A stretch of DNA of 64,000 bases from an uncultured Lachnospiraceae bacterium (GCA_910588885.1 CAJUSQ010000002.1:1350-65349), one strand, 5' to 3'; counted from the stretch's first letter, positions 31,601-50,407 are shown. The notes: a model not told the origin generated them from the letters alone. Numbers and translations: made by a program.

Positions 31601-31661
31601 TTGCTTCTATGGACGTATTCACGTTCCTGATTTCATTGATTCCGGTATTCTCTATCCGCAT
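28635..31661 (-). CDS. 1008-aa hypothetical protein, possible FliK-like C-terminal domain
   Basis: Long helical Glu/Ala/Leu-rich protein. The segment VDVLFETEKLGKVAARFTVTEQRLEGFVSSDRADTLEMLKQREEQL resembles the Flg_hook domain of hook-length control proteins. The stop is 13 nt before the flagellin ATG. Confidence 0.5.
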   Translation of the reverse strand: MRIENTGINEIRNVNTSIEAKGSDTVKAGNTGQKGISVGWEDQSACGGHGVASTTVEKALFSLESELEKIKRDAGNIDFELIKTQMAVLAGSLSSEDIRNLSKEGYSLNDTDAGTIVTVMDKIKMELAKAGKDISAFGDSLSMEQLEAMTGNAVQASRMAADLKECQDGDIAYLVENELEPTIENLYWAQHSGSSKSGKGQPLPEDANLRRQIEQMIEQAGLPVNETTFGYGELLFENQLPLTPENLVYVDRLKNAQLPLSGEAVTQAVSRAVSEGKAPKEAYMLEGYSYEERAEAAWQVVAEADEKTVEAAADAGKEITIEALAEAEQEASRQTGKGQRAGQQAAGESQDGKLLTAKRQLEEIRLMMTVQANYQLLKKGISIETLELEQLVEELKSLENDYYKTMLTGRGIEPTPENTALFRNTTEQIAALKEYPAYLLGRHSLDSATVEGLCESGRSMQAALEQASEAYDTMMTKPRSDLGDSMKKAFRNVDDILRDLQLEPTRANQRAVRILAYNEMEINAENISRIKAADEKVQNLFEDMKPAVVLEMIREGIHPLQTDIETLSRKAEEIAGRLDPGQEEKYSKYLWTLEQNKEITPEEKESYIGIYRLLRQIEKTDGAAIGAVLNQGGELSLKNLLGAVRSRQKKGMDVTIDGRFGAAEEVNRKEAAIHQQVEAAYQTDCAKDALSRLTPEGIAESVASGEWQELTPEQLLEQLIKERRSEETPGQEERYYQQQSVWLGEGQKAEDAVLQLLDDYQLPFDTWHILAAGQMVSNRNSVYNKLFDKEWMEKNPDLQEAKETLLEEFAEAVKTPEDMAKAQMALAETAERVMETMINDKDATSQSVRDLRVLRTQIQLGGAMSREENYAVPVLIADEMTNVQLKIVRGKKTRGMVDVLFETEKLGKVAARFTVTEQRLEGFVSSDRADTLEMLKQREEQLFGESAGNADKHTQMEYSLQQNLSLSDFTKGRKNQPDPKQSGEDYQVQTRDLYAMAKAFIETVKQAG

Positions 31662-31750
31662 ATCAGTACCCCGTTTTCATTCTTCCGAAACAATTATTAT
31701 TCCGGGCAGCCGCAAACCATCCTCATTTGCGGCCGGCCCTTTGGCAAGTC

Positions 31751-31758
31751 TTATCGGC
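31751..31758 (-). promoter_or_regulatory. sigma-28 (FliA/SigD)-like -10 element GCCGATAA
   Basis: Minus-strand GCCGATAA about 90 nt upstream of ATG 31661. The upstream TAAG lies at non-canonical spacing (12 instead of 15 nt). Confidence 0.3.
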
Positions 31759-31852
31759 TGTCCTGCAATCCTTATCTGCGGCAGCTCTTTCGGCAAGTTT
31801 GTTTGACTGCCATATATCTGCATTTACTATTTCGGAAGAATAACGTCAAAAC

Positions 31853-34387: not shown

Positions 34388-35534
34388 TCACGTCTGTCCT
34401 TTCCTCCTGCAGTCTTGCCAGTGTCGGGTTTACATGAAGAAATTCCGCCAGCCGGCGATAATGTTCCGGTTTTTGCTCTCTTTTCCCTTTTACGGCACGG
34501 ATCAGGATATTCTTTGGGGTATGCTCCATATCAATAAACTCCAATACCTGAACGTCGTAGCCTCTGCTTTCCAGTATTTCCGCCCGCAGCCCGTCGGTAA
34601 TCAGGGCCGCCATCCGTTCCTTTAAAAGCCCGTACTTCAGAACCGGAGCCAGCAGCTCATTTTGAATCTGGCCATTTAGCTCATGCTGGCAGCAGGGCAC
34701 CGATAAAATCACCTTTGCTCCCCAGCAAACGGCCTGATTCAGCGCATAATCCGTAGCGGTATCACAGGCATGAAGGGTAACAACCATATCCACCGGCCCT
34801 TCGGCAGAATATCCGGCAATGTCCCCCACTGCAAAATGAAGCCCCTCGAACCCATATTTTTCCGCCAAACCACTGCACTTCTCAATGACGTCCTCCTTTA
34901 AGTCCAACCCGGTAATCCGAACCTGGTAACCCTTCTGTACCTTTAAATAATGGTACATGGCAAAGGTCAGATAGGACTTCCCGCAGCCGAAATCCAGGAT
35001 ATTCACCTCCCGTTCCCTGGGAAGCTTCGGAAGGATATCCTCGATAAATTCCAGAAAACGGTTGATCTGACGGAATTTATCATATCGGGCGTTTACGATC
35101 TTCCCTTCCGGGGTCTGTACGCCCAGATCCACCAAAAATCCAATGGGCCGCTCCGTATCCAAAAGATACCGTTTCTTTCTATTATGGGACAAATCCCTCT
35201 GTTTTACACAGCCCGTCCCCTTCTTTTCCTTGATGGTGACCTGCCCCTTCTTGCTGACCAATACATGAGCCTGTCCGCATACAGCGGACACTTCCAGCTG
35301 CCGGTACTCCTGCATCCATGCTGCGGTTTGGGATATGGCCATGGTACGTTCCAAATTCTGATGATATACCTTATTATCCTTATAAATACTGGCCTGAAAC
35401 AAAATCCCGCCCCTTTGCTCCACCGGGCGGATCTGGATTTTCCGGGCCGCTTCCTTGCTGCGGGGGTTGCTTAAGATGGCCTGTAAAAGGTCTTTCGTGA
35501 AATATTTATCAAAAAGCGCTGTTATCTCATCCAT
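34380..35534 (-). CDS. class I SAM-dependent methyltransferase
   Basis: Motif I ILDFGCGKSYL. 8-nt overlap with the downstream 844-aa gene. Confidence 0.8.
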   Translation of the reverse strand: MDEITALFDKYFTKDLLQAILSNPRSKEAARKIQIRPVEQRGGILFQASIYKDNKVYHQNLERTMAISQTAAWMQEYRQLEVSAVCGQAHVLVSKKGQVTIKEKKGTGCVKQRDLSHNRKKRYLLDTERPIGFLVDLGVQTPEGKIVNARYDKFRQINRFLEFIEDILPKLPREREVNILDFGCGKSYLTFAMYHYLKVQKGYQVRITGLDLKEDVIEKCSGLAEKYGFEGLHFAVGDIAGYSAEGPVDMVVTLHACDTATDYALNQAVCWGAKVILSVPCCQHELNGQIQNELLAPVLKYGLLKERMAALITDGLRAEILESRGYDVQVLEFIDMEHTPKNILIRAVKGKREQKPEHYRRLAEFLHVNPTLARLQEERTDVNA

Positions 35535-35617
35535 TCATTTCTCCTTGAAGAACTGCTTCCATTCGTTACCCTTACGATTATACCCATTTTTCCTGCCCCT
35601 GTCCACATAAAAAATCC

Positions 35618-35646
35618 TTGACATCGCCCGGGAAATCGGCTATGAT
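35618..35646 (+). promoter_or_regulatory. sigma-A promoter of degV
   Basis: TTGACA-17 nt-TATGAT, 70 nt upstream of ATG 35717. Confidence 0.55.
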
Positions 35647-35716
35647 ACATGTAATTTGTATTTATTTTGATTTTCAAACTATTTGGCCTTAAAACCTCAA
35701 AGAAAGGGAATGAATT

Positions 35717-36553
35717 ATGATAAAAATAGCCGTGGACTCTTCTTCCGATTATACACAGGAAGACATTCGGGAAAAAAACCTGTGCCTGATCCCGATTACC
35801 ATTACCCTGGGAAATGAAAATTATATTGAGGGCGTGAATCTGGACCGAAACGATTTTTACCGCCTTCTGGAGAAAAGCAGTAAGTTCCCCCATACCTCCC
35901 AGCCTTCTCCCCAAGCCTTTTTGGAGCTTTTCCAAAGCGCCAAGGACGACGGGGATTCCGTCATCTGCATTCTTTTGTCCTCGAATCTAAGCGGCACCTG
36001 CCAAAGCGCCCATTTAGCCAAAAGCATGGTGGATTATGAAAATATCTATATCATTGATTCCCTTTCCGCTACCTTTACCATTAAAATTATGGCCGATTAT
36101 GCCTGCCGGCTGGTATCGGAGGGGCTTTCGGCTCAGGAAATCACCGCCAAAATCGGAGAGCTAAAATCCCGGGTCAAGGTAATCGCCGCACTGGATACTC
36201 TGGAATACCTCTATAAGGGCGGGCGGCTTAGCCGGGCATCGGCAGCCATCGGGACCATGGCCAATGTAAAACCCATTATCACCCTGACCAAGGAGGGTGG
36301 GATTGGCGTTCTGGGAAAGGCTCTTGGCAAAGGCAAAGCCATGGCCGGAATCTTAAACCGTTTCAAAGAGATGGGAAGGGACGAGAACTTCCCCCTTTAC
36401 GCCATCTACAGCTACGGTGTTGAAAACTGTGAAAAGCTGGAACATAAGCTGTCGGAAAACGGTTTTTCCCCGGACAGCCGACTGCAGATCGGCCCCACCA
36501 TCGGAACCCATATCGGCCCCGGAGCATACGGAATCGTATTTGTGGCAGGCTAA
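35717..36553 (+). CDS. DegV-family fatty-acid-binding protein
   Basis: 278 aa. IKIAVDSSSD start and TSQPSP motif. Confidence 0.9.
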   Translation: MIKIAVDSSSDYTQEDIREKNLCLIPITITLGNENYIEGVNLDRNDFYRLLEKSSKFPHTSQPSPQAFLELFQSAKDDGDSVICILLSSNLSGTCQSAHLAKSMVDYENIYIIDSLSATFTIKIMADYACRLVSEGLSAQEITAKIGELKSRVKVIAALDTLEYLYKGGRLSRASAAIGTMANVKPIITLTKEGGIGVLGKALGKGKAMAGILNRFKEMGRDENFPLYAIYSYGVENCEKLEHKLSENGFSPDSRLQIGPTIGTHIGPGAYGIVFVAG

Positions 36554-36589
36554 AAGGTACATCCGCATATCACCAGGTGTTTCCTATAT

Positions 36590-36630
36590 AAAAGACGGGC
36601 AGAAGACACATCCTTCTGTCCGTCTTTTTG
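36590..36630. terminator. bidirectional intrinsic terminator
   Basis: gacgggcagaag-N7-cttctgtccgtc (12 bp) flanked by AAAA and TTTTT. Confidence 0.65.
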
Positions 36631-36696
36631 TGATTGCAGCCATCCGCATCCACTTATTTTCGGTATCCCCTTTCCATCATCCACTCCGGCCCGAAA

Positions 36697-37317
36697 TTAC
36701 CACCAGCGCTTACATCTTCTATGGCGGCATCTGCGGTTATACATCTCGTTATAGAGCATGACTTCAATCAGGTTTCGAAGTCCCGAATCGTGTCTTGGGG
36801 GTCTGGGCGGCCCGGGCGGTGGCCCAAAGGGCGGCCTTGGAGGACCTGGAGGGCCGGGCGGCGGGCCAAAGGGCGGCCTTCCCGAACCTACCAGCCGCAG
36901 TTCCTCAGATTCAACCGTTTCATACTGCTCCGCTTCGAAATCTATAGGCTGGGCCGTCTTCTGATAAATACGATCTACAATATTTTTCAGCATCAGCCGA
37001 TCCGGATACTCATCAAACATCATGCTTCCTTCGTATTCCATCTTATCGCATTCCTCGTCCACGAAATCCTGAATGCCCCGGACTTCCTGAGGATATAACC
37101 CCTTCAGCCGGTCCATATCACGCTCATACTCCGCTTCCTCCAGGAAGATATTTTGCATGGGGTAGGTCATATAAAAAGGCATTTTCTGGGAAGCGCCGCT
37201 TGTCATTCTGTAAAATTCATCCTGTTTATAGTCCAATGATATTCTCCCAATCCTGACTTCACTATAGTATATGCCTATTTTCTTTTTCTGGTGCTTCCGA
37301 TTCTGTTTTTCACTCAT
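36697..37317 (-). CDS. proline-rich hypothetical protein
   Basis: 206 aa. Duplicated RPPFGPPPGPP block and a basic Cys-containing C-terminus (NRRCRHRRCKRWW). 8-nt overlap with the patatin gene stop. Confidence 0.55.
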   Translation of the reverse strand: MSEKQNRKHQKKKIGIYYSEVRIGRISLDYKQDEFYRMTSGASQKMPFYMTYPMQNIFLEEAEYERDMDRLKGLYPQEVRGIQDFVDEECDKMEYEGSMMFDEYPDRLMLKNIVDRIYQKTAQPIDFEAEQYETVESEELRLVGSGRPPFGPPPGPPGPPRPPFGPPPGPPRPPRHDSGLRNLIEVMLYNEMYNRRCRHRRCKRWW

Positions 37318-38604
37318 CCACCGTCAGTAAAAACAGCGCGGCTGCCAGTTCATAGGGTACAAATGTCAAAAGCCCAAGCTGTTCCGTCAAATCAATCTTT
37401 CCCTTCCGGTAGGCATGGTAAATACAGCCCGTAATATATCTGCTGTCCTTTTTCCGCTTCAGTTCCGCAAGTCCGGCTGCCAGCTCCATGGACCCTTTCC
37501 CGCTAAAAAGACCAAGTCCGGCCTGCTCCTCCGGCAACATCCTGTGAAACAGATGCTCTGTAAATTCCGACAAATACCAGGGCTCTTCCTTTGGAATTTC
37601 AAATATTTCCCCGCAGATTTCCGCTGCGCCTACAAAATAATCCTGCTTTGTATAAGTATGTTTTCCGATGTGCTCCTCAATATTTCCACACAGCTTCCGG
37701 CTGTCCCCGGGCTTTACAAGCTTGCTGAAGGTTCCCTCCGTCAAATAGGACTCCGTACGGGCCACCCGGCTGACAAAGGCGCAGATCTCCTCCTGATACT
37801 GATCCAGGTCTTCCTGATAAAAGCAGTACTCATAACCATCCATCCGTCCAAAAGCCTTCAGCGTATCGTAATAGCCCAACCTACGGTTAAACTCCAGCAC
37901 TTCCCGATCGAAGTTCAGCATGGTTCCCAAGGACTTGCTGGGGGTAATATATTTTACATAGGGCTTATTCACATAGCCCGGATGCTGGGGTGTCGTGTGC
38001 AGATCCACTGCGATCACCTCATCCGCCCCCATTTTTAACGCTAAATCAATGGGCAGATTATCATAATAGCACCCGTCCAGATATAGGTCGTTCCCAATCT
38101 TATGCATGGGAAATACCGGAAAAATAGAAGAGGATGCCATGATAAAATCTTTTAGCATTCCATAGGGAATTTCCTCTTTGGACAGCTCCATCGCCTTCAG
38201 AGAGAAAAACTGTACCGTCACAAGCACGTAATCCACATCGGAGGCCCATACCTTGTCCTCATCGATCAATCGGTCAATAAAGGACAGAAAGGGCGAGATA
38301 TCGGCCCCCTTGTTTTTGACATATTTTTTAAAAACGGTCCAATGGCATCCCTCTGATTATACATTCCCTCAATAGTCGTACTCAGGTTCAGCCCGTCCGA
38401 CATGATATCGCCTATCTCTATGGTATCCCAAATTTCACAGGCCCTTTCATACTCCCTGGTTGCCATCAGCGCCCCGTTCACTGCTCCAATGGAGGTTCCG
38501 GTTACGATCTGATAGTCGATCCCCAGCTCCAGCAGCGCTTTCCAGACTCCCGCCTCATAAGCGCCCTTCGTTCCTCCGCCGCCTAATGCAATTGCCCTCT
38601 GCAA
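37310..38604 (-). pseudogene. patatin-like phospholipase, full length but split by a 1-nt homopolymer frameshift (copy 1)
   Basis: GGGGTKG oxyanion motif, GTSIGA nucleophile elbow and LDGCYYDN Asp dyad. The two ORFs (38266..38703 and 37310..38269) join if one T or A is added in T5A6 at 38324-38334. TTG start at 38604 after GGGGGGAG. Confidence 0.8.
37701..38604. repeat. direct repeat copy A (partner at 38967..39870, offset 1266 bp)
   Basis: By-eye alignment: 37737-38468 is identical (732 bp). There are 4 mismatches in 37701-37736 and 11 mismatches in 38469-38604. Confidence 0.9.
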
Positions 38605-38630
38605 TCCCGCTCCCCCCTGTTCCTTCCGGC

Positions 38631-38960
38631 TCACCGGTTTCCCGCAGCCATCCTGTCTATTTCTTTCAAAAAAGCTTCCATTGTGTCCGCCCTGGACGCA
38701 CACTTCAGCAGTTTTTGCAGGATTCCTGTGTCAGAAATCCCCTGGATTTGCTCTTTTATTCCTCCCGTTACCGGTCCAAGCTCTGCGGCCAAATTCAATA
38801 TCGACTGCTGTATTCCTTGTTCTATTCCTTGTTCTATTCCCTGTTCTATTCCCTGGCGAACACCTTCTTGATATTCCAATTCCCGAATCAGTTTTAATTC
38901 TTTTTCTTCATCATATTCGAATATGCTCACTGAAATCGCCTCCGCCTTGTACTTTTCCAA
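38631..38960 (-). pseudogene. fragment resembling the C-terminal region of an Rpn/YhgA-like recombination-promoting nuclease (putative transposase)
   Basis: 109-aa ORF: FEYDEEKELKLIRELEYQEGVRQGIEQGIEQGIEQGIQQSILNLAAELG...ILQKLL...AFLKEI. The (E/Q)G(I/V)xQG repeats followed by a helical tail are typical of the C-terminus of that family. The nuclease N-domain is absent. Confidence 0.45.
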
Positions 38961-38966
38961 TTCCAG

Positions 38967-39870
38967 CTGTCCCTGGGCTTTACAAACTTGCTGAAAGTTC
39001 CTTCCGTCAAATAGGACTCCGTACGGGCCACCCGGCTGACAAAGGCGCAGATCTCCTCCTGATACTGATCCAGGTCTTCCTGATAAAAGCAGTACTCATA
39101 ACCATCCATCCGTCCAAAAGCCTTCAGCGTATCGTAATAGCCCAACCTACGGTTAAACTCCAGCACTTCCCGATCGAAGTTCAGCATGGTTCCCAAGGAC
39201 TTGCTGGGGGTAATATATTTTACATAGGGCTTATTCACATAGCCCGGATGCTGGGGTGTCGTGTGCAGATCCACTGCGATCACCTCATCCGCCCCCATTT
39301 TTAACGCTAAATCAATGGGCAGATTATCATAATAGCACCCGTCCAGATATAGGTCGTTCCCAATCTTATGCATGGGAAATACCGGAAAAATAGAAGAGGA
39401 TGCCATGATAAAATCTTTTAGCATTCCATAGGGAATTTCCTCTTTGGACAGCTCCATCGCCTTCAGAGAGAAAAACTGTACCGTCACAAGCACGTAATCC
39501 ACATCGGAGGCCCATACCTTGTCCTCATCGATCAATCGGTCAATAAAGGACAGAAAGGGCGAGATATCGGCCCCCTTGTTTTTGACATATTTTTTAAAAA
39601 CGGTCCAATGGCATCCCTCTGATTATACATTCCCTCAATAGTCGTACTCAGGTTCAGCCCGTCCGACATGATATCGCCTATCTCTATGGTATCCCAAATT
39701 TCACAGGCCCTTTCATACTCCCTGGTTGCCATCATCGCCCCGTTCACGGCTCCAATGGAGGTTCCGGTTGTGATCTGGTAGTCGATCCCCAGCTCCAGCA
39801 GCGCTTTTCAGACTCCTGCCTCATAAACACCCTTTGTTCCTCCGCCGCCTAATGCAATTGCCCTCTGCAA
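38967..39870. repeat. direct repeat copy B
   Basis: See copy A. Confidence 0.9.
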
Positions 39871-39876
39871 TCTCAA
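38967..39876 (-). pseudogene. patatin-like phospholipase, 5' ~900 bp only (copy 2): in-frame TGA, same frameshift, 3' truncation
   Basis: TTG 39876 / 39870 start region preceded by AGGAAG. Codon 21 is TGA (39808-39810) where copy 1 has TGG. The identical T5A6 frameshift is at 39590-39600. Homology ends at 38967. Confidence 0.8.
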
Positions 39877-40057
39877 TTCTTCCTATTCCGTTATTCCTAA
39901 TCGGCAGCTTTTCCAATACTTTGTACATATTTTAGCATATGCCTGTTTTTTTCACAATCATTTTTGCAGTTGTTGTAATTGAATTTGCTATATCAGGTGG
40001 AATATTTATTAGTTTTTTTATAATTCCTGTTTTATAATATAATTTTTTAAAATATTA

Positions 40058-40086
40058 TTGACAAATTATATAATATAATTTAATAT
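40058..40086 (+). promoter_or_regulatory. consensus-like sigma-A promoter in a ~20% GC tract
   Basis: TTGACA-17 nt-TAATAT, flanked by a 13-bp direct repeat tataatataattt (40033-40045 and 40069-40081). It would give a ~280-nt leader before ATG 40373. Confidence 0.45.
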
Positions 40087-40372
40087 ATAATTATTAAAAT
40101 TGTGTATATGATATATTAAATTTTTATATATTGTATTACAAATATTTTTTTTAAGGAGGGATGATAGTTTCTCCCGCGTAGCTATGAAAAAACAGCCATT
40201 AAATTTATCCGCCTTTCGCTGATAGCAGATCCTACATGGCTTAACTTGCAGAAGGCACATTTTTATATTTTTTGTACATATGCTACGCTGAAAACACAAA
40301 CCAAAGAAGAAACACCCTGCTCTTACCTCTGTATCTTCAGAACGCAGGGCAGAAAGGAGGATATGAAAATTC

Positions 40373-41374
40373 ATGAAAAAAAATTTTTTACCTATGTTGC
40401 TGCTCATTAGCTGTATGTTTGTACCGCTGTCTGCATCTGCATCCTTATTGTCTACAGAAGAGGAGAAAGATTTCAAAGATGTTGGAAAAGCTCTATCTGA
40501 AATACCTTTCATAGACAAATCGCAAACAGATACTTCAATACAAAAAAAAGAGTTGATTCCGGAAGATACCTCTACTGAAAAATTTATTTCGGAACACTCC
40601 ACAAATAATTCCGACATCGCTACGCTGGCCAATGGTGGGCAATGGATACAAGCTGCCGATGGCCGATGGTGGTATCAACATGCAGATGGATCTTATACCA
40701 CAAACGGTTGGGAATTAATAAATGGGAAATGGTATTATTTTGATGCGCAGGGATGGATGTTGACCGGATGGGTAAAGGTAAGCAATATTTGGTATTATCT
40801 GGAACCAACCGGAGAAATGCGTACTTCCCCTCTATATCATAATGGCAGTCATTACACCTTTTACAGTTCAGGAGCATTGCAATCTACCAAGTTAGGCGTT
40901 GTCAGGCAAAAGCAACAAATGGGCAACTGGTGCTGGGTCGCTTGCGCTGTAATGGTTGGAAGATATGACCTTCCGGCATCACAACAGACAATTACTCAAT
41001 CTGATGCTGTAAGAAAAGTAAAGGGTGGTGTCATTGATGAAGTGGGCAGTCCTACTGATAAAATAAAAGCTCTGGAGTATGTTTCTCATTATACAAAAAT
41101 CGGCATGTCTATTGGAAGCCCCGTAAACTTTGACGGAGCTGTTAATGGTATAGATCTTAGAAAACCATTTATTCTTTCTATGGGTTGGAATAGTGGAGGC
41201 GGACATGCGATTGTCTGTGCTGGATATTCTAAATCTACTCGTGAATTATGGATTATAGATCCAGCAAATAGCATACCAAACCAATATTATAATCTTGATA
41301 GCTTGATTAAAGGAACTAAAATCGCCTCTGGAACAGGAAAATATCGGAGTACCGTACTTTTCAGATATCCATAA
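40373..41374 (+). CDS. secreted protein: signal peptide + cell-wall-binding (CW_binding_1-type) repeats + C-terminal C39-like papain-fold cysteine peptidase domain
   Basis: MKKNFLPMLLLISCMFVPLSASA signal peptide. GWELINGKWYYFDAQGWMLTGWVKV repeats. Catalytic-like Q-x5-NWCWVACAVMVGRY, GGGHAIVCAGY and WIIDP. Confidence 0.7.
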   Translation: MKKNFLPMLLLISCMFVPLSASASLLSTEEEKDFKDVGKALSEIPFIDKSQTDTSIQKKELIPEDTSTEKFISEHSTNNSDIATLANGGQWIQAADGRWWYQHADGSYTTNGWELINGKWYYFDAQGWMLTGWVKVSNIWYYLEPTGEMRTSPLYHNGSHYTFYSSGALQSTKLGVVRQKQQMGNWCWVACAVMVGRYDLPASQQTITQSDAVRKVKGGVIDEVGSPTDKIKALEYVSHYTKIGMSIGSPVNFDGAVNGIDLRKPFILSMGWNSGGGHAIVCAGYSKSTRELWIIDPANSIPNQYYNLDSLIKGTKIASGTGKYRSTVLFRYP

Positions 41375-41395
41375 ACATTTAGGAGGACTAAATAT

Positions 41396-42382
41396 ATGAA
41401 AAAAAAATTGCATATTGTTGTATTATTAGTAATAATTTTCGGCCTAAGCACAAAATCTACCGTATTAGCTTTCAACATTGAAACTCTCCCCGAAAGCGAA
41501 GATTTTCAGGAGTTACAAAAACTGGAGAATCGTTTTCTGCAATGCGGCATGAATTTTGCATCTGGAGATACTATTCCTGAAGATTTAAGAATCGCTTATG
41601 AACTTGCAGTAAAAATAAGAATTGATACAAATATTTTCCTTTCTGATACGCTGTCCTCCGCCGAGTTGGAAAAAACTTTATCAGCAGCAGATTATATCTG
41701 GCAGGTTCCAGTCGAACTTCCTACCGGAGGGTATGTAATCTGTACCGTCAGTCGTGCACTTCCAATTGATGAAACAACGCAGCAAGAATTATTAGACCAG
41801 GGAATTTATACGCAAGAAGAATTAAGTGAGCAATTAGCAAAAACAGGCCAATGGGAAATTCCTGCTTACGGATATGATGAAACCGGAAAAGAATATATCG
41901 GCCATTTAGAGGATGCATCCAAAGAACAATACCACCCCGAAGATTCTGACATGGTTTATCTTCTGGGCGGAACTCCGAATTTCCGGCAGCCCTTTGGGCT
42001 ATGGTGCCGTGAGAACTCTTATCAGATTATATCTATCAGCGATAGTTCCGACCTGACATTGCAGCCAATTCCTGAAAACTCAGTATTGCTGGAAGAAACC
42101 ACAGAACAGCCCCAATCTGTTTCCTCCGATACAGATACCGGCAGCCCCAATCTATATTCCTTTGAAGAAGTACAAAAAGTTCTCTCAAACCTTCCTCCCG
42201 AACAAAACGGTTTAGACAGCGGTCTTGGTATTCACATGGGAGATCATACAGATGGCAATTCTTTTAAAGACTCATCCGGAAACATGCCGGTTATGATTTT
42301 TGTCGGAATTTCCGTATTATTCCTTCTTACAGTCGGCGCAGCATATATTGTCGTCCAAAAGAAACGAACAAGTAATCCGTAA
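41396..42382 (+). CDS. hypothetical surface protein (signal peptide + C-terminal TM anchor)
   Basis: 328 aa. N-terminal signal peptide, C-terminal MPVMIFVGISVLFLLTVGAAYIVV followed by QKKRTSNP. 21 nt after the peptidase gene, with GGAGG RBS. Confidence 0.6.
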   Translation: MKKKLHIVVLLVIIFGLSTKSTVLAFNIETLPESEDFQELQKLENRFLQCGMNFASGDTIPEDLRIAYELAVKIRIDTNIFLSDTLSSAELEKTLSAADYIWQVPVELPTGGYVICTVSRALPIDETTQQELLDQGIYTQEELSEQLAKTGQWEIPAYGYDETGKEYIGHLEDASKEQYHPEDSDMVYLLGGTPNFRQPFGLWCRENSYQIISISDSSDLTLQPIPENSVLLEETTEQPQSVSSDTDTGSPNLYSFEEVQKVLSNLPPEQNGLDSGLGIHMGDHTDGNSFKDSSGNMPVMIFVGISVLFLLTVGAAYIVVQKKRTSNP

Positions 42383-42390
42383 CTGAAAAG

Positions 42391-42437
42391 TGGCTACAAC
42401 CCCAGTAATTATGCGGGCTGTAGCCATCTTCTTTTTG
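42391..42437 (+). terminator. intrinsic terminator after the two-gene secreted-protein unit
   Basis: ggctacaaccc-N12-gggctgtagcc (10/11 bp) followed by atcttcttttt. Confidence 0.6.
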
Positions 42438-42550
42438 AAAATGACTTGTGCGTTTTTTTACTTCTTTTGTTTTGGTAGTTTTATAGTTTCGTATATAACA
42501 TAGTCGTAAATAAATATTTGGGAGAAAAAATCTCAATAAGGAGATAAACA

Positions 42551-43060
42551 ATGGAAAAATTTTATTTTGAAAGTATCAATCACAATTCAGCCATCTATGA
42601 GCCGATGATTGAACATATTACATTAAGAAAATATACTAATAATGATTATAACTTTGTTTATCAAGTGAAAAAGAATGCATATAAAAAATATGTAGAAGAA
42701 TGTTGGGGAGCATGGATAGAAGAAGACCAGCAAAAACATTTTGAAAATTTTATAAATCAGGTAAGAGAACATGCTTATGTCATACATTATGATAATAAAG
42801 ATATTGGTTTTTATAATGGAGAAGTATTAGAAAATGGTAATTACGAAATAGGAAATATATGCATTATTTCCGAATATCAAGGTAAAGGAATTGGAACTAA
42901 GATATTAAAAGAAATATTAGAAAAATATAACGATACTGATATAGAAATACAATATTTTAAACAAAATCCAGTTGGAGCTTTCTACGAAAAACTGGGATTT
43001 GAGAAATCCGGAGAAACTAATTTTCATTATCAAATGACTAAATCTAAAAATGTTACTTAA
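42551..43060 (+). CDS. GNAT-family N-acetyltransferase (~30% GC)
   Basis: 169 aa. Acetyl-CoA motif A: IISEYQGKGIGTKILKEIL. C-terminal NPVGAFYEKLGF. Confidence 0.85.
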   Translation: MEKFYFESINHNSAIYEPMIEHITLRKYTNNDYNFVYQVKKNAYKKYVEECWGAWIEEDQQKHFENFINQVREHAYVIHYDNKDIGFYNGEVLENGNYEIGNICIISEYQGKGIGTKILKEILEKYNDTDIEIQYFKQNPVGAFYEKLGFEKSGETNFHYQMTKSKNVT

Positions 43061-43160
43061 AAAAATAGTTCAATTTTTTCTGATTCCCAAATCATCGCTT
43101 TAGGTGCTGTTACCAAAAAAAACTGCTTCCTCTGCCATCACTCGCCGCCGCCCCGCAAAC

Positions 43161-43189
43161 TTGTATTTCCAAAAGATATATGGTAAAAT
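43161..43189 (+). promoter_or_regulatory. extended -10 sigma-A promoter of the ibrA-like operon
   Basis: TTGTAT-17 nt (ending TGg)-TAAAAT, 48 nt upstream of GTG 43237. Confidence 0.5.
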
Positions 43190-43236
43190 ATGGAAATATT
43201 GCTTACAAACATCGACAGCGAGAATAGAATTGCGAG

Positions 43237-44565
43237 GTGATCAGCACGAAAAGAGAATACATTAGTCAAAACGTCTATGAGGCTTTACAGGAACGGCTGC
43301 ATTACATTTTTCAGGAATTTGAAAATATCTATGTTTCTTTTTCCGGTGGAAAGGACAGCGGCCTTTTACTGAACCTGACTTTGGATTTTCAAAAAAAATA
43401 TTACCCCCATAGGAAAATCGGTGTCTTCCATCAGGACTTCGAAGCACAATACACCGTTACGACAGAATATGTAGAACGTACGTTCGAAAAAATTCAAGAT
43501 CAAGTAGAGCCTTACTGGGTATGTCTTCCTATGGCAACCCGTACCGCTTTAAGCAGCTATGAAATGTTCTGGTTTCCTTGGGATGATACAAAGGAGTCTT
43601 CCTGGGTACGCCCTATGCCGAATCATCCCTATGTCATCCATCTCAAAAACAACCCCATCACTACCTATCACTACCGCATGCATCAGGAGGATTTGGCCAA
43701 GCAGTTCGGCCGCTGGTACCGTATGTCCCATGATAACAAAAAAACCGTATGCCTGCTGGGTATACGGACAGACGAATCCCTGCAGCGTTACAGCGGCATC
43801 CTGAATCGCCGGTACGGCTATAAGGGAACCTGCTGGATCAGCAAGCAGTTTAAGGACGTCTGGTGTGCCTCTCCCATATATGACTGGTCTTTAAGTGATG
43901 TCTGGCATGCCAATTACACCTTTCATTATGATTATAACCGTTTATACGACCTCTACTACATGGCCGGATTAAAGCCGGATCAGATGCGGGTGGCTTCTCC
44001 CTTTAACGATTATGCCAAGGAAAGCCTGAACCTGTACCGGGTGATTGACCCGGCCATCTGGACCAAGCTGGTTGGCCGGGTACGGGGTGTAAACTTCGCT
44101 TCCATCTACGGCAGAACGAAGGCCATGGGATATCGGAACCTGACTTTGCCGGAGGGCCATACCTGGAAATCCTATACCAAATTCCTGCTGGATACGCTTC
44201 CTACCAAGCTTCGCAACAATTACATCAAAAAGTTCAATACTTCCATCGAATTCTGGCACAAAACCGGAGGGGGATTGGAAGAAAATACTATTTCAGAGCT
44301 TTTGGAACACGGATACAATATCCAGCGGAACGGTGTTTCCAATTATACCTTGTTAAAAAAATCCAGGATCATCTTTGTGGGCAATATCCCGGACCATACC
44401 GACGATATAAAATCCACCAAAGATATCCCAAGCTGGAAGCGCATGTGCTATTGTATTCTGAAAAATGACCACCTCTGCCGTTTTATGGGCTTTGGCCTGA
44501 CCCGGCAGCAGCAGCTTCGCATTAATATGCTGAAACAAAAATACCGCAGTATTGGAGATACCTAA
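43237..44565 (+). CDS. IbrA-like protein: PAPS-reductase/PP-loop ATP-pyrophosphatase domain + long C-terminal (DUF3440-type) extension
   Basis: 442 aa. PP-loop YVSFSGGKDSGLLLNL; LGIRTDES. The ~200-aa C-terminal region has no catalytic motif I recognise. Confidence 0.8.
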   Translation: MISTKREYISQNVYEALQERLHYIFQEFENIYVSFSGGKDSGLLLNLTLDFQKKYYPHRKIGVFHQDFEAQYTVTTEYVERTFEKIQDQVEPYWVCLPMATRTALSSYEMFWFPWDDTKESSWVRPMPNHPYVIHLKNNPITTYHYRMHQEDLAKQFGRWYRMSHDNKKTVCLLGIRTDESLQRYSGILNRRYGYKGTCWISKQFKDVWCASPIYDWSLSDVWHANYTFHYDYNRLYDLYYMAGLKPDQMRVASPFNDYAKESLNLYRVIDPAIWTKLVGRVRGVNFASIYGRTKAMGYRNLTLPEGHTWKSYTKFLLDTLPTKLRNNYIKKFNTSIEFWHKTGGGLEENTISELLEHGYNIQRNGVSNYTLLKKSRIIFVGNIPDHTDDIKSTKDIPSWKRMCYCILKNDHLCRFMGFGLTRQQQLRINMLKQKYRSIGDT

Positions 44566-44566
44566 G

Positions 44567-45094
44567 ATGAATAAAAGTCCCGTTTACAACGTTGTTTCCG
44601 TCCCTATCGAAAAAATCGAACCAAATACCTATAACCCTAATTCAGTAGCGCCTCCGGAATTCCAGCTGTTATACGACAGCATCAAAGAAGATGGTTACAC
44701 CATGCCGATTGTATGCTATTATAAAAGTGATACGGATACCTATATCATCGTAGACGGATTTCACCGCTATCGCATTATGTTGGATTATCCGGATATCTAC
44801 GCACGGGAAAACGGCCAGCTTCCGGTAGCCGTCATTGACAAACCCCTGGACCAGCGTATGGCCAGCACCATTCGCCACAACCGGGCCAGAGGCTCCCACA
44901 ATGTGGACTTGATGAGTAATATTGTAAAAGAGCTTCACGAATTGGGCCGTTCCGATGCCTGGATCTCCAAGCATCTGGGAATGGATAAAGATGAAATCCT
45001 CCGCCTGAAACAGATAACCGGTTTAACCTCCCTGTTCAAGGATGCACAATTCAGTTCTTCCTGGCTTCCCGCAGAGGAGGAAGAATCATTCTAA
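44567..45094 (+). CDS. IbrB-like ParB/sulfiredoxin N-terminal-domain protein
   Basis: 175 aa from ATG 44567 (GGAG 9 nt upstream; the ibrA-like TAA ends at 44565). IVDGFHRYRI and TIRHNRARGSH motifs of the ParB-like nuclease/NTPase fold. Confidence 0.8.
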   Translation: MNKSPVYNVVSVPIEKIEPNTYNPNSVAPPEFQLLYDSIKEDGYTMPIVCYYKSDTDTYIIVDGFHRYRIMLDYPDIYARENGQLPVAVIDKPLDQRMASTIRHNRARGSHNVDLMSNIVKELHELGRSDAWISKHLGMDKDEILRLKQITGLTSLFKDAQFSSSWLPAEEEESF

Positions 45095-45172
45095 ACATAT
45101 GTTCTTTTTATTTTACGATTTATGCGCTGTTCACAAAGCAGTAAAATATTGCCCCAAGAAAGGAGATTTTCT

Positions 45173-45709
45173 ATGTCAATCCAAGAATTTATTGCTTCCC
45201 ACAAAGACTCCCTGGGTATTCACGAGTATGCCTTCCTCTCCACCTCAGATTTGGTATTCTCACAGGATGTACGCCATTTATGCGAAATGAATTCCTGCGG
45301 ACAATACGGAACTACCTGGGCCTGCCCGCCGGGAGTCGGAACTTTGGAAGAATGTAAAAGCCGCATTTTAAAATACCAACATTTATTCGTATTCACAACG
45401 GTTCATGAGCTGGAAGATTCTTACGATTTTGAAGGTATGATGGAGGGAAAAGAACGGCACAATGCACTCTGCCCCAACATTGCCGAATCCTTTCGAAATG
45501 AGTATCCGGATCTTTTGATTCTTTCGGCAGAAGGCTGCAATCGCTGCAAAACCTGCACCTATCCGGATGCTCCCTGCCGTTTTCCGGACACTCTGTACCC
45601 TTCCATTGAAAGCTACTGTGTGGAGGTAAACCGCTTAGCGTCTACTGCAGGCATCCATTATATCAACGGGGAAAATACCGTTACTTATTTTGGATGTATT
45701 ATGTACTAA
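45173..45709 (+). CDS. Cys-rich predicted metal-binding protein (DUF2284-like)
   Basis: 178 aa from MSIQEF (AAAGGAG RBS). CEMNSCGQYGTTWACPP and CNRCKTCTYPDAPC motifs. Confidence 0.7.
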   Translation: MSIQEFIASHKDSLGIHEYAFLSTSDLVFSQDVRHLCEMNSCGQYGTTWACPPGVGTLEECKSRILKYQHLFVFTTVHELEDSYDFEGMMEGKERHNALCPNIAESFRNEYPDLLILSAEGCNRCKTCTYPDAPCRFPDTLYPSIESYCVEVNRLASTAGIHYINGENTVTYFGCIMY

Positions 45710-45730
45710 TTCTTTTCATGTATTTTCATA

Positions 45731-45772
45731 AAAAAAGCTTCCTGAACAGCAAGTGTTCAAGAAGCTTTTTTC
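45731..45772. terminator. bidirectional intrinsic terminator (convergent with glgB)
   Basis: aaaaaaagcttcctgaaca-gcaag-tgttcaagaagctttttt. Confidence 0.7.
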
Positions 45773-47767: not shown

Positions 47768-50407
47768 CTATTCTTGAAAATCTTTTTCCTTAATGAGCAC
47801 ATGCCCGTTCTCTGTGCTCCGTTTACCGCCAAACAGCTTTTTCAGCCCGCCGCGGCCGGCCCGGGAAATGGCCCCATCCATAATGTCCTTTACTTCCGTC
47901 AGTGTGGTAGCCTCATCCAGCTTCTGGATATTGCTGATGCTGTTATAAAGCGCCAGAATGCCCATATCATCAATGACACAATTCTGTTCTCTGGCATAGG
48001 CTTTTGCAAACTCCACCAACTCGTCGCTGGTAAAAATAGGGACTTCGATTTTTTCCGTAAATTTCTCGGCAAAGGATGCACTTTTTCTCATGGCCCGCTC
48101 CATTCCGGTACGGTCATCCTCTAAAAGAACCATAACCCCTTTGGTATCCAGCTCCATCAGCTCCGAAAGCTTTTCCACCGACTCCTTCGATAAATCACCT
48201 GCCTTTTCTATAATCAGATATCCGCCTTCCACCGCCTTAAGCAATGCTTTCGCATCCTTTTGATTTAAGGTGACCGCAGATATTTTACCCACTTTTCCAC
48301 CGGTATGTCCCACAAGCTTCTGATAGGCTTTGACAAAATTCGTTGCCAGCATGGTCTTTCCGCTGCCCTTTCCGCCTAAAATCATCAGGTTTCCTGCCTG
48401 GGAAGTCCTGCTGCCCTTTTTCTTCTGCCTTACTCCCTCTAATGCCCGGCACAGCTGCTCTTCCATCCCGCTGATACAGGTAAAATATGTAAATATCTTT
48501 TTCTGCTCTTCATTTAATTCCAATACAGGCTTTTGGGATGTCTGCCCCTCCATACGTGCCTGCCCTAAGGCTTCCGCTGACGGAAGCCTTCCGGTTCTTC
48601 TTCTATTCACTGCAGAATCCGTCGCCGGACGCTCCAATACCTGCTGGGCCAGCTGCTGGCGCCTTAGAATCTTCTGCTCCAGTTCCTTCTGCTTTCGTTC
48701 CAATTCTTTCTGTTTCTGTTTTAATTCCGCCCCCGGCCGTAATACCGGAGACGTTTCAGCCGAAGCTTCCTGGCCCGCCGAACCATCGGTTCCTTCCGGC
48801 ACAGTTCCGGTCTCCTGATCCGGATAGCCCATTCCGTCCGAAACGCTTCCCGATTCCTGGCCCAGGGCATCGGCTCCGTCCGGCAGATTCGGCGCCTGGC
48901 CGGGAAAACCGCCGGTTTCCGGATTGTTTTCGAACATTTGTTCTTGTTCTAATTCCGACACCTCTCCGTATTCCGGCTCCGGATTTCTGCCCATTGGGGA
49001 ATCCGGAAACCCGGAAGCTTCCTGGCCCGGAAAGATCGAATCCCTACCGGGGCCGCGCTTTTGCGCATCGCTGTTGCCCCCGATCTCGGCCCTGCGGCCG
49101 GCAGATTGTTCCAACAGCTCCGGATTTAGCCGGATTTCTGCGGTCAACCGTTCCATAATACTTTGGGCTTCCCGCAGAGCTTTGGCTTTGGCATCATCCA
49201 GCTGCCGCTGCTCGGCTTCCGCAATCGCCGCACGGGCCGCTTCCTTCGCCCGCTCCCACTCTGCCAGAATATCTTCAATACTCATCTGGCCCGTAATCTG
49301 AAGATTCGGGCTTGGCGTATCCGGTATCCGAAGCCGGAACTGCCCGTCATATTCCTCTGCCAGTATGCCTTGATAAGCAGAATCTGATTCCGGTTCCTGA
49401 GGAAAATCCGACCTCATATCCTGAAAATCAATCTGAAGGGTCGGGTCCGGAATCTCCCCTGTAAAATCTTCTTCCGGTTCATCCAAATAATCCTCCGGTT
49501 CCTTCAGCTCTTCCATCTCTTCCGGTTCCAAATAGGGAATCCCGCCTACCATTTTTTTGATATTTTCCATGGTATCGCTGACCGTTTCCTGCTTGGTGGC
49601 ATTCATAATCTGCTCCATGCTTTTTGCCAGCTCTTCCTGAAGGTTTACGGTGTTGAATTTCCCGGTATCAGACAGAATACTGGGAATCTGTACCGTTTCA
49701 CTGACAATCTCCCCGGAGGACAGTTCATCATAGGGAGAAACCTCCACGATTCCTTCTTTCTTCTGCTTGAACCTGCGGTACTTGTCTTCCTGAAGCTTAT
49801 TCAGGGGCTGATACATCATTTTCAGCTCCAATGCCTTCTCTACGTATTGGCCCTCCCCAAACCACAGGATCAGCTCATCGCAAATATCCACGCATTTCTC
49901 TTCCTTACCGGCCTTATGATATAAATAAGCCAGTTCAAAGGCCCATTCCTCCGTATATTCCCGTTCTTTAAATTCCTCCAGAATGGAGATCTGTTCTTCC
50001 AGCTCCGTCCCCTTGGCCTTGGCTATTTCGTATTTTAATACATACTTCATATTATCATGCGGAGCAATTTCTAAAAATTCCTCATAATAATCCTGGGCTT
50101 CCTGCAGATTTCCCAATTTTAATGCGACCAGGGTCAAACGGTAAATGATATTCCGCCCTACCGGGGAACGGTCATACGCCATCAGCAGAATTTCCCTGCT
50201 TTCCTCCAGCTGACGGTTTTTTTCATAAATCTCCCCAATCATACACAGGGTTGCCACGCTTTTTACTTTCTTCCAATTTACGCTGTCTGCAATCTGGGCG
50301 GAGCCTTTATAGTCCTTTACTTCTGCCAGCTTTTTAATCTGCTCCAGCTTCAGCTTGTATTCGTACTTATCCAATGATTTCACCTCAAATATTATAAAAG
50401 GGTACAA
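47768..50407 (-). CDS. TPR-repeat protein with long disordered middle and C-terminal SpoVK/CbbX-like AAA+ domain
   Basis: N-terminal TPR-like helices. Walker A LGGKGSGKT and Walker-B-like GYLIIEKAG near the C-terminus. Confidence 0.6.
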   Translation of the reverse strand: MYPFIIFEVKSLDKYEYKLKLEQIKKLAEVKDYKGSAQIADSVNWKKVKSVATLCMIGEIYEKNRQLEESREILLMAYDRSPVGRNIIYRLTLVALKLGNLQEAQDYYEEFLEIAPHDNMKYVLKYEIAKAKGTELEEQISILEEFKEREYTEEWAFELAYLYHKAGKEEKCVDICDELILWFGEGQYVEKALELKMMYQPLNKLQEDKYRRFKQKKEGIVEVSPYDELSSGEIVSETVQIPSILSDTGKFNTVNLQEELAKSMEQIMNATKQETVSDTMENIKKMVGGIPYLEPEEMEELKEPEDYLDEPEEDFTGEIPDPTLQIDFQDMRSDFPQEPESDSAYQGILAEEYDGQFRLRIPDTPSPNLQITGQMSIEDILAEWERAKEAARAAIAEAEQRQLDDAKAKALREAQSIMERLTAEIRLNPELLEQSAGRRAEIGGNSDAQKRGPGRDSIFPGQEASGFPDSPMGRNPEPEYGEVSELEQEQMFENNPETGGFPGQAPNLPDGADALGQESGSVSDGMGYPDQETGTVPEGTDGSAGQEASAETSPVLRPGAELKQKQKELERKQKELEQKILRRQQLAQQVLERPATDSAVNRRRTGRLPSAEALGQARMEGQTSQKPVLELNEEQKKIFTYFTCISGMEEQLCRALEGVRQKKKGSRTSQAGNLMILGGKGSGKTMLATNFVKAYQKLVGHTGGKVGKISAVTLNQKDAKALLKAVEGGYLIIEKAGDLSKESVEKLSELMELDTKGVMVLLEDDRTGMERAMRKSASFAEKFTEKIEVPIFTSDELVEFAKAYAREQNCVIDDMGILALYNSISNIQKLDEATTLTEVKDIMDGAISRAGRGGLKKLFGGKRSTENGHVLIKEKDFQE

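Follow-up and report, generated by a model that had tools for sequence, protein, structure and literature searches.

The IbrA/IbrB family reportedly was defined genetically, through proteins that co-activate prophage eib genes when both are present. YbdN/YbdM of Escherichia coli, to which IbrA/IbrB are paralogous, and lmo1310/lmo1309 of Listeria have the same domain architecture and gene order, and both pairs have a core-like chromosomal distribution. In E. coli, ybdNM is repressed by the divergently encoded LysR-type repressor CitR (YbdO) and is barely expressed (PMC9068703), and the Listeria lmo1309/lmo1310 pair is listed among core genes (PMC7020466). The papers that we found term YbdM, IbrA and IbrB uncharacterised or of unknown function, and our literature search returned no biochemical study of any family member. 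A PP-loop enzyme with the fold of 3'-phosphoadenosine-5'-phosphosulfate (PAPS) reductase is likewise combined with a ParB-superfamily DGxHR protein in DndC/DndB, where DndB is an ATP-modulated autorepressor and DndC contains three cysteine ligands of a 4Fe-4S cluster and a cysteine dyad (PMC10853773). Here, we describe an IbrA/IbrB-like gene pair in a 64,000-nucleotide stretch of DNA from an uncultured Lachnospiraceae bacterium (GCA_910588885.1, CAJUSQ010000002.1:1350-65349; hereafter, the window). The ibrA-like gene (43237-44565, plus strand) encodes 442 residues with SFSGGKDS at residues 34-41, and the ibrB-like gene (44567-45094, plus strand) encodes 175 residues with the motifs VDGFHRY and IRHNRARGSH; we refer to the products as IbrA and IbrB.

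The pair almost certainly belongs to the IbrA/IbrB family, that is, the YbdN/YbdM family (COG3969 plus an IbrB-like ParB protein), because of its identity to YbdN and YbdM, its PHROG matches and the annotation of its phage homologues. IbrA is 30% identical to E. coli K-12 YbdN over its full length (residues 12-425; E = 8e-61), and IbrB is 51% identical to YbdM (E = 3e-56), which RefSeq (PGAP) calls an "IbrB-like domain-containing protein." End to end, IbrA corresponds to phrog_2302 (E = 8e-104) and IbrB to phrog_2159 (E = 9e-79), and phage homologues at 41-45% identity are annotated as IbrA/IbrB, "co-activator of prophage gene expression." Pfam, one of the checks proposed in an earlier note on this DNA, matched the 442-residue protein to PAPS_reduct (PF01507; E = 7e-10, 39.6 bits against a cut-off of 22.5) and to DUF3440 (PF11922; E = 9e-88, 293 bits against a cut-off of 25), and the ParB_N match of the 175-residue protein fell slightly below its cut-off (E = 4e-5, 24.1 against 26.3 bits). 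Thus, the two-gene IbrA/IbrB architecture recognised in the earlier note is borne out, and the open reading frames (ORFs), motifs and junction coordinates it gave for the pair and for a third, downstream gene are correct. The E. coli pair differs in that YbdN lacks an insert of about 40 residues (about 344-384 of the window IbrA) and that ybdN and ybdM overlap by 28 nt, whereas the window genes are 1 nt apart. We conclude that the pair is an ordinary chromosomal copy, typical of a known but biochemically uncharacterised family.

The pair, without a third gene, is the functional unit. Relatives turned up in at least 549 species when species-representative genomes were scanned, and the 80 best loci, mostly from metagenome-assembled genomes (MAGs) of Lachnospiraceae/Clostridia at 79-85% identity, were compared in detail; these closest relatives are phylogenetically related, and counts over them therefore are not independent events. 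In all 80, an IbrB homologue lies directly downstream of ibrA on the same strand. The same is nearly true of 80 more distant loci from IMG/VR contigs (31-62% identity, possibly including prophage or cellular DNA), as an IbrB gene lies within about 500 nt of ibrA in 77 of them, two of the three exceptions having too little downstream contig and the third beginning inside ibrA. The order ibrA-ibrB is also common to E. coli K-12 and three phages. No IbrA-IbrB fusion was found among eight longer family members tested, two of which look like chimeras with ABC_tran or PGA_cap. Thus the pair co-occurs in other genomes, as the earlier note had expected. Its claim of translational coupling was not supported as a general feature. 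At the junction (44554-44569, plus strand), the ibrA TAA (44563-44565) is followed after 1 nt by the ibrB ATG (44567-44569), with GGAG (44554-44557) at a spacing of 9 nt. Such tight spacing is particular to this genome: in the 80 orthologous loci, tblastn matches to IbrA and IbrB are separated by anything from 5 to about 95 nt, so that the 1-nt coupling is not conserved though adjacency is.

The earlier note had also suggested a cysteine-rich third component, and this was not borne out. The candidate (45173-45709, plus strand) encodes a 178-residue DUF2284 protein (Pfam E = 2e-48) with CX4CX8CPP and CX2CX2CX6C motifs, for which neither PHROG, PADLOC nor NCBIfam returned a match. We rejected it as part of the module because it adjoins the pair in only 2 of the 80 loci, the two closest relatives (L001 and L071), and is on the opposite strand in one of them. 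In all three genomes the gene lies between ibrB and glgB (8152-8685 in L001, 7973-8506 in L071), and its orientation in L001 reflects a local inversion between close relatives. In this genome the DUF2284 gene is possibly read through from the operon: the spacer after ibrB showed no significant structure on folding (z = -0.2), and the strong bidirectional terminator described in the earlier note lies beyond the DUF2284 gene at 45731-45771. Folding supported the terminator, which consists of an A-tract, a 17-pair stem and a T-tract, is common to the convergent glgB, and has a dG of -19.5 kcal/mol (z = -5.1; 0 of 200 shuffles equally stable).

IbrA combines an intact ATP-pyrophosphatase fold of the PP-loop type with a family-specific domain. 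The PP-loop domain, of the PAPS-reductase fold, spans approximately residues 1-243, and the basic DUF3440 domain spans residues 244-442 (isoelectric point [pI], 9.8). In an alignment of 69 sequences reaching down to about 28% identity, the (nearly) invariant residues are S36-G-G-K-D-S41, D67-x-E69 and G175-x-R-x-x-E-S-x-x-R184 (GIRxDESxxR), together with P213, D216, D221, W223, Y233-N234, Y237, R251, R281, G284 and D411. The AlphaFold2 model has a mean predicted local distance difference test (pLDDT) score of 92.8, and Foldseek aligned its N-terminal 230-250 residues only, with CysH, CysD, FAD synthase/FMN adenylyltransferase (FMNAT), adenosine phosphosulfate (APS) reductase, TtuA/NcsA and TilS. 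IbrA has no sequence relative in the PDB, and a search of BFVD returned nothing but another uncharacterised COG3969 protein. The earlier note had named membership in assimilatory CysH as a finding that would undo its reading, and we found the opposite: IbrA contains no "ECG," the 69 family members share no conserved C-terminal cysteine, and no NCBIfam CysH model was matched (CysD scored 16.7 bits against a cut-off of 195). Absence of the ECGLH motif indicates that IbrA is not CysH. Moreover, the sole conserved cysteine is C96 (at least 90% of the 69 sequences), and IbrA is unlike DndC in that the cysteine set for an Fe-S cluster is absent and DUF3440 stands in place of the DndC C-terminus.

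IbrB, as modelled, is a miniature ParB, with an N-domain of the nucleoside triphosphate (NTP)-pocket type followed by a helix-turn-helix (HTH). Foldseek superposed about 150 columns of the AlphaFold2 model (pLDDT 76) on C-terminally truncated Noc, CTP-bound ParB, KorB and Spo0J, with a probability score at the maximum for Noc, ParB and KorB; SerK, sulfiredoxin (Srx) and SbnI came lower in the list. IbrB also matches the ParB-N module of phage DNA methyltransferases, phrog_498. The resemblance to the ParB, Noc and KorB clamps has limits, however. IbrB VDGFHRYR aligns with box II of Noc, IAGERRWRA, so GFHR replaces GERR, and the catalytic glutamate of the ParB CTPase therefore is absent and a DGxHR-type motif takes its place. 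By reading, RHNRARG occupies the position of box III, apparently giving HNRAR for ENLQR. The protein ends about 25 residues past the HTH, with no C-terminal dimerisation domain, and there is no ParA partner. IbrB has DGFHR, which follows the DGxHR pattern of the DndB motif DGQHR, and the DndB models of PADLOC and NCBIfam were unmatched.

The earlier note had placed an extended -10 promoter at 43161-43189. A promoter can be read there on the plus strand, with a -35-like TTGTAT (43161-43166), a 17-nt spacer and an extended -10 TGgTAAAAT (43181-43189). With a -35 that agrees with the consensus at only three of six positions, it was missing from the output of a consensus scan, and support for the promoter therefore rests on conservation across loci: the TATGGTAAA(A/T)T box is found again ahead of orthologues whose flanks are unrelated. 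Embedded in the promoter is a cluster of three TGGWAAW half-sites (43165-43197, plus strand), ATTTCCA at 43165-43171 (inverted), TGGTAAA at 43181-43187 and TGGAAAT at 43191-43197, with 10-nt spacing, which overlap the -35, the extended -10 and the start-site region. In loci whose flanks are unrelated, TGGWAAW or its complement occurs 1.54 times per 220 nt upstream of ibrA, against a background of 0.31 (five-fold), and 77 of the 123 sites fall between -60 and -21; the usual arrangement is two copies spaced by 10 nt or a pair in inverted orientation. Paired clusters lie at most 130 nt upstream in 34 of the 80 loci, where their density of 3.27 per kb is about 200 times that of the other 0.93 Mb (0.016 per kb), and the cluster in the window is the only such pair in 64 kb. 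Judged from its position and recurrence, the repeat looks like an operator. The TGGAAAT half-site resembles the GGGAAAT half of the Noc-binding site, and we take the likeness of the upstream motif to the CodY, Rex and Noc-site consensuses to be partial, with no identity claimed. Across the 64 kb, Rfam at gathering thresholds returned no riboswitch or leader RNA. One lineage (L003, L028 and L040) is without TGGWAAW repeats and has the start region ATGTATATG; about 110 nt upstream of its ibrA lies the end of an ORF resembling an Xre-type HTH protein (C-terminus VTTDSLLKIC..LHCDISDIMEI), which may be an alternative regulator.

Translation of ibrA may also be held low. Among 79 loci, the codon at the homologous position is ATG in 51, ACG in 25 (L002, L004-L009, L012, L013, L016, L018, L019, L022-L024, L029-L031, L033, L035-L037, L039, L041 and L042), GTG in 2 and AAG in 1. 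The orthologue ATG sits six bases past a strong Shine-Dalgarno (SD) sequence, and in the window ACG occupies that exact position, such that the start region (43234-43248, plus strand) consists of the SD GAGGTG (43234-43239), a 6-nt spacer and ACG (43246-43248). The sole canonical in-frame start in the window, GTG 43237, lies inside that SD, and the codon homologous to the orthologue ATG is ACG 43246-43248, which possibly is the true start in place of GTG 43237. Of 21 four-fold-degenerate codon columns in 27 ACG-type sequences, the ACG column alone has an invariant third base, which suggests near-cognate initiation at ACG or another means of keeping translation low. Initiation from ACG, or from a GTG embedded in the SD, would be inefficient, suggesting deliberately low expression. 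CitR/YbdO acts on the E. coli operon, whereas the window has a promoter-embedded TGGWAAW repeat combined with an ACG or an SD-embedded GTG; the operator-like repeat and the conserved ACG start are new here. Three loci carry labels outside Clostridia, L004 ("uncultured Mollicutes bacterium"), L005 ("Staphylococcus sp. CAG:324") and L039 (an "Alistipes sp." MAG), and have the whole cassette of promoter box, SD, ACG, ibrA and ibrB at 80-83% protein identity, which suggests cassette transfer or MAG contamination. The TTTTCCA/TGGTAAA half-site is kept in L004 and L005, two Bacilli-type MAGs at 82-83% identity, and none was found in L039 by the strict pattern.

The pair behaves like a housekeeping locus rather than an accessory one. 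Its GC content (0.46-0.49) is that of the backbone (0.45-0.50), and it is syntenic in L001 and L071. The earlier note had described a low-GC island directly beside the pair, and GC indeed drops to 0.26-0.42 at 40000-43100; the low-GC DNA, however, is upstream of the pair and does not include it. In L001 and L071, the equivalent of window positions 30450-37300 runs straight into the ibrA promoter region, and the approximately 5.9 kb between 37300 and 43220, being absent from both, therefore was inserted ahead of the operon in this genome. In genome pairs with common flanks, IbrA and IbrB are 92-94% identical where the flanks are 79-86% identical, which indicates vertical inheritance under strong constraint. 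The E. coli counterpart, ybdNM, is present in 5,421 of 5,426 complete genomes. Neighbour genes in the 80 loci, identified by reading translations rather than by Pfam, fell into clusters, the three largest of which (15, 14 and 10 loci) look like genes for a family-31 glycosidase, a methyl-accepting chemotaxis protein and a MATE pump. Further neighbours read as ABC ATPase, nicotinamidase-like and DtxR-like genes, and in 4 of the 80 loci the pair has a cysteine synthase-like (CysK) gene nearby. Clustering of the 80 loci gave no recurrent neighbour other than IbrB. Thus, neither composition, patchiness of distribution nor defence or mobility neighbours mark a defence island, and the accessory or defence-island context that had been suggested does not agree with the backbone GC, synteny, mostly housekeeping-type flanks, slower evolution and core E. 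coli counterpart.

Kinship with the Dnd or BREX type 4 systems, raised in the earlier note, does not extend beyond the folds. PADLOC gave only partial matches of 23-29 bits to DndC (29 bits) and BrxP, and the NCBIfam DndC model TIGR03183 scored 23.8 bits against a cut-off of 290.4. None of the companions of Dnd (DndA, DndD and DndE), Ssp (SspA, SspB and SspC) or BREX type 4 (PglZ, BrxC and BrxL) recurs in the 80 loci. With no companions and matches far under the cut-offs, membership in either system was rejected.

Phages carry the same two proteins in the same order (phrog_2302 plus phrog_2159) at 41-45% identity. A homologue is encoded in 224 of 50,697 phage records, 41 of them covering at least 80% of the query. 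In Lactobacillus phage CR28 and Streptococcus thermophilus phage CHPC1148 (gp27/gp28) the pair follows a SNF2-type helicase, in Mycobacterium phage Gaia (gp103/gp104) it follows a PD-(D/E)XK nuclease, and a helicase adjoins it in at least 17 of the 80 IMG/VR loci. Between the phage-type IbrA and IbrB genes, or fused to the pair, there is often a small gene, encoding an ectoine-synthase-like (EctC-like) cupin (Pfam E = 2e-40), a GNAT protein or an unassigned 141-residue domain. Loci of this kind include L104 (6299-6682), L112 (6335-6727) and L120 (6302-6691); L100 (6306-6719), L129 (6077-6589) and L148 (6119-6712); and L130 (4559-4984) and L164 (3823-4989, where the 141-residue domain is fused to IbrB). 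The window operon differs in having neither a phage-type helicase or nuclease nor an EctC-like cupin or GNAT gene between the pair. A GNAT gene also lies just upstream of ibrA in the window, and the link may be coincidence because that gene is inside the inserted low-GC block. The phage partners point to work on DNA, possibly with assembly of a small adduct.

How the pair acts can be proposed only tentatively. We consider it possible, if somewhat short of probable, that IbrA and IbrB form an autoregulated, DNA-directed module in which IbrB binds DNA and an NTP and IbrA adenylylates a target group that is then substituted. IbrB would bind DNA, among other places at the repeats that overlap its own promoter, and repress the operon as DndB and KorB do, the autorepression of DndB being the role we envisage for IbrB. 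IbrB would also bring IbrA to nucleic acid or activate it there. IbrA would spend ATP to adenylylate a group on the substrate, and a nucleophile would replace the adenylyl group, following the PP-loop chemistry of TilS and DndC. TilS and other PP-loop adenylylating enzymes share the SGGxDS loop and the fold class with IbrA and provide the chemical model "adenylylate, then substitute"; TilS differs in its substrate-binding domains, which are unrelated to IbrA, and its model TIGR02432 scored 20.6 bits against a cut-off of 93.6. In cells, the module might serve a low-level, tightly controlled epigenetic or regulatory function on the chromosome, with no restriction partner, and phages might use the same pair together with the SNF2 helicase. 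ATP-dependent adenylylation is suggested by the invariant SGGKDS, DxE and GIRxDESxxR motifs and the CysD/FMNAT/TtuA/TilS fold. A link to DNA is suggested by superposition on Noc, ParB and KorB, by the phrog_498 match, by the SNF2 and nuclease neighbours in phages and by the basic DUF3440 half. Autoregulation and low expression are suggested by the promoter repeats, the invariant ACG, the precedent of DndB and the repression of ybdNM. Within this model we infer the substrate, the interaction of IbrB with the operator and an IbrA-IbrB complex, and a role in nucleic-acid modification or regulation is our best guess.

Several points weigh against that proposal. IbrB is acidic (pI 5.2; 4.95 for the HTH half), its structural model is moderately confident, and its candidacy as the protein that binds the TGGWAAW repeats comes from analogy with DndB and KorB. 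Paired sites occur in only 34-47 of the 80 loci, many of them phylogenetically related. Foldseek gave no solved structural relative for the DUF3440 half of IbrA, and the cellular loci contain neither a helicase or nuclease nor a sulfur donor or reader/restriction partner. Moreover, the literature that we found assigns no substrate, product or DNA-binding activity to members of the family, and some weak hints, considered below, lead toward metabolism.

A more specific version of the DNA-directed module is a covalent DNA modification independent of restriction, which we regard as unlikely: the PP-loop enzyme would adenylylate DNA at a base carbonyl or in the backbone, a TilS-like substitution would follow, and IbrB would direct the reaction to specific sites. 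Such a system, kept scarce by autoregulation, would occur in E. coli (as ybdNM), in Listeria and in gut Firmicutes by the hundreds, and phages would add SNF2 and EctC or GNAT proteins to build a hypermodified base. Covalent modification of nucleic acid might also be absent altogether. IbrB could be an NTP- or ligand-gated regulator of the KorB, DndB or SbnI type, with IbrA making or consuming the ligand and eib activation resulting from IbrB on DNA. The closest IbrB structures are KorB, Noc and ParB, SbnI is an enzyme-regulator of the same fold, the operator-like repeats lie at the operon's own promoter, and the names given to homologues agree, as sources call them "predicted transcriptional regulators," phage annotations read "co-activators of prophage gene expression" and YbdM appears among predicted transcription factors (PMC9068703). 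A regulator alone is nonetheless doubtful, as it leaves unexplained both the phage SNF2 helicase partner and the constant need for a 440-residue PP-loop enzyme conserved to more than 90% among syntenic genomes, and replacement of the catalytic glutamate in ParB boxes II and III makes a ParB-type CTP clamp cycle questionable. Alternatively, the pair might act on a small molecule, possibly sulfur related, with IbrB as a SerK/SbnI-like kinase and IbrA as a CysD/FMNAT-like adenylyltransferase. The nearest solved folds of IbrA are CysH, CysD and FAD synthase, and YbdM rises together with MmuP in published data. The weak hints come from the lower-ranked SerK, sulfiredoxin and SbnI matches of IbrB, the CysK gene near the pair in four loci, the EctC-like and GNAT genes intercalated in phage versions, the methionine transaminase gene ybdL that adjoins ybdNM in E. 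coli, and the cys-regulon genes that co-vary with ybdNM in a citR mutant (PMC9068703). We think this rather improbable, however, because the top IbrB matches span the ParB N-domain and HTH and are not kinases, the 80 loci have no conserved metabolic neighbourhood, phage copies belong to replication modules with helicases and nucleases as neighbours, and the window is devoid of Rfam riboswitches at gathering thresholds. The name "ybdM" in a paper on CymR of Staphylococcus aureus may denote a different protein.

Substrates other than DNA or metabolites, and roles in conflict, fare less well. The tRNA-modifying PP-loop proteins TilS, TtuA and NcsA are among the fold matches of IbrA, and strong conservation and core status would fit a housekeeping enzyme of tRNA or rRNA modification with a ParB-like specificity or regulatory subunit. 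IbrA, however, is without the Fe-S cysteines of TtuA and NcsA, its phage neighbours encode helicases and nucleases, E. coli ybdNM is nonessential and silenced, and no RNA-modifying enzyme is known to us that has a ParB-fold partner; RNA modification thus seems very unlikely. We give as little credence, and if anything a shade less, to anti-phage defence or a restriction-modification-like system, alone or with DUF2284. Both folds are common to DndC/DndB, SspD and BrxP (PMC12839542, PMC10853773), with weak PADLOC matches, and the low-GC island adjoins the pair. The island, however, is inserted beside the pair and not around it, DUF2284 is not conserved with the pair, the flanks in the 80 genomes are variable and mostly housekeeping type with no effector or reader gene, and the PADLOC matches are partial. 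Moreover, phages themselves carry the pair, which in cells evolves slowly in vertical synteny and has core counterparts in E. coli and Listeria (PMC7020466). Finally, annotation would make IbrA a CysH-type PAPS reductase, from the Pfam PAPS_reduct match and phage homologues annotated as cysH auxiliary metabolic genes, or the pair a toxin-antitoxin system, from a guilt-by-association call (TASmania) that counts the Listeria pair among putative systems of this type (PMC7020466). Both are scarcely credible: the sizes of 442 and 175 residues, core status and strong conservation are unlike those of toxin-antitoxin modules, and IbrA has neither ECGLH or another C-terminal catalytic cysteine nor an NCBIfam CysH match. 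Moreover, IbrA has a canonical ATP-binding SGGKDS, the equivalent of which is degenerate in CysH.

Features around the operon were also recorded. The 37300-43220 insertion holds a patatin-like gene, read from its translation, and the low-GC block, which encodes a C39/C70-type peptidase with cell-wall-binding (choline-binding) repeats, a 328-residue protein without a Pfam match and the GNAT protein. Within the patatin-like region is a 300-nt direct duplication (37695-37994 and 38961-39260; 98% identical, 1,266 nt apart) that gives near-identical N-termini to two minus-strand ORFs (37310-38269 and 38927-39535). The duplication is probably the "recombination scar" of the earlier note, and it could be an assembly artefact. 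At the left edge of the low-GC block (40030-40150) are very AT-rich repeats, including a 36-nt tandem and 43-nt inverted arms that are 72% complementary. A tandem 42-nt repeat at 36794-36877, within a minus-strand ORF of 206 residues (36697-37317), encodes the Pro/Gly-rich GPPPGPPGPPRPPFGPPPGPPRPP, and the 206-residue protein is about 80% conserved in L001 and L071. Downstream of glgB, an 879-residue protein (47768-50407, minus strand), with near-identical copies that have no recorded Pfam match, diverges fast, being 58-66% identical in relatives where GlgB is 88-89% identical.

The IbrA/IbrB family is large, with 1,928 clusters at 50% identity and, in one scan, at least 549 species, and it is common in phages. 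The "cysH / PAPS reductase" auxiliary-gene annotation that its phage members routinely receive is, we argue, wrong, because the CysH motif is absent and a ParB-like partner is obligatory. The locus described here offers several handles on the family: a candidate operator, an unusual ACG start, one conserved cysteine and an intact PP-loop. Ultimately, the chemistry, once solved, would give a function to YbdN and YbdM, uncharacterised proteins of E. coli K-12.

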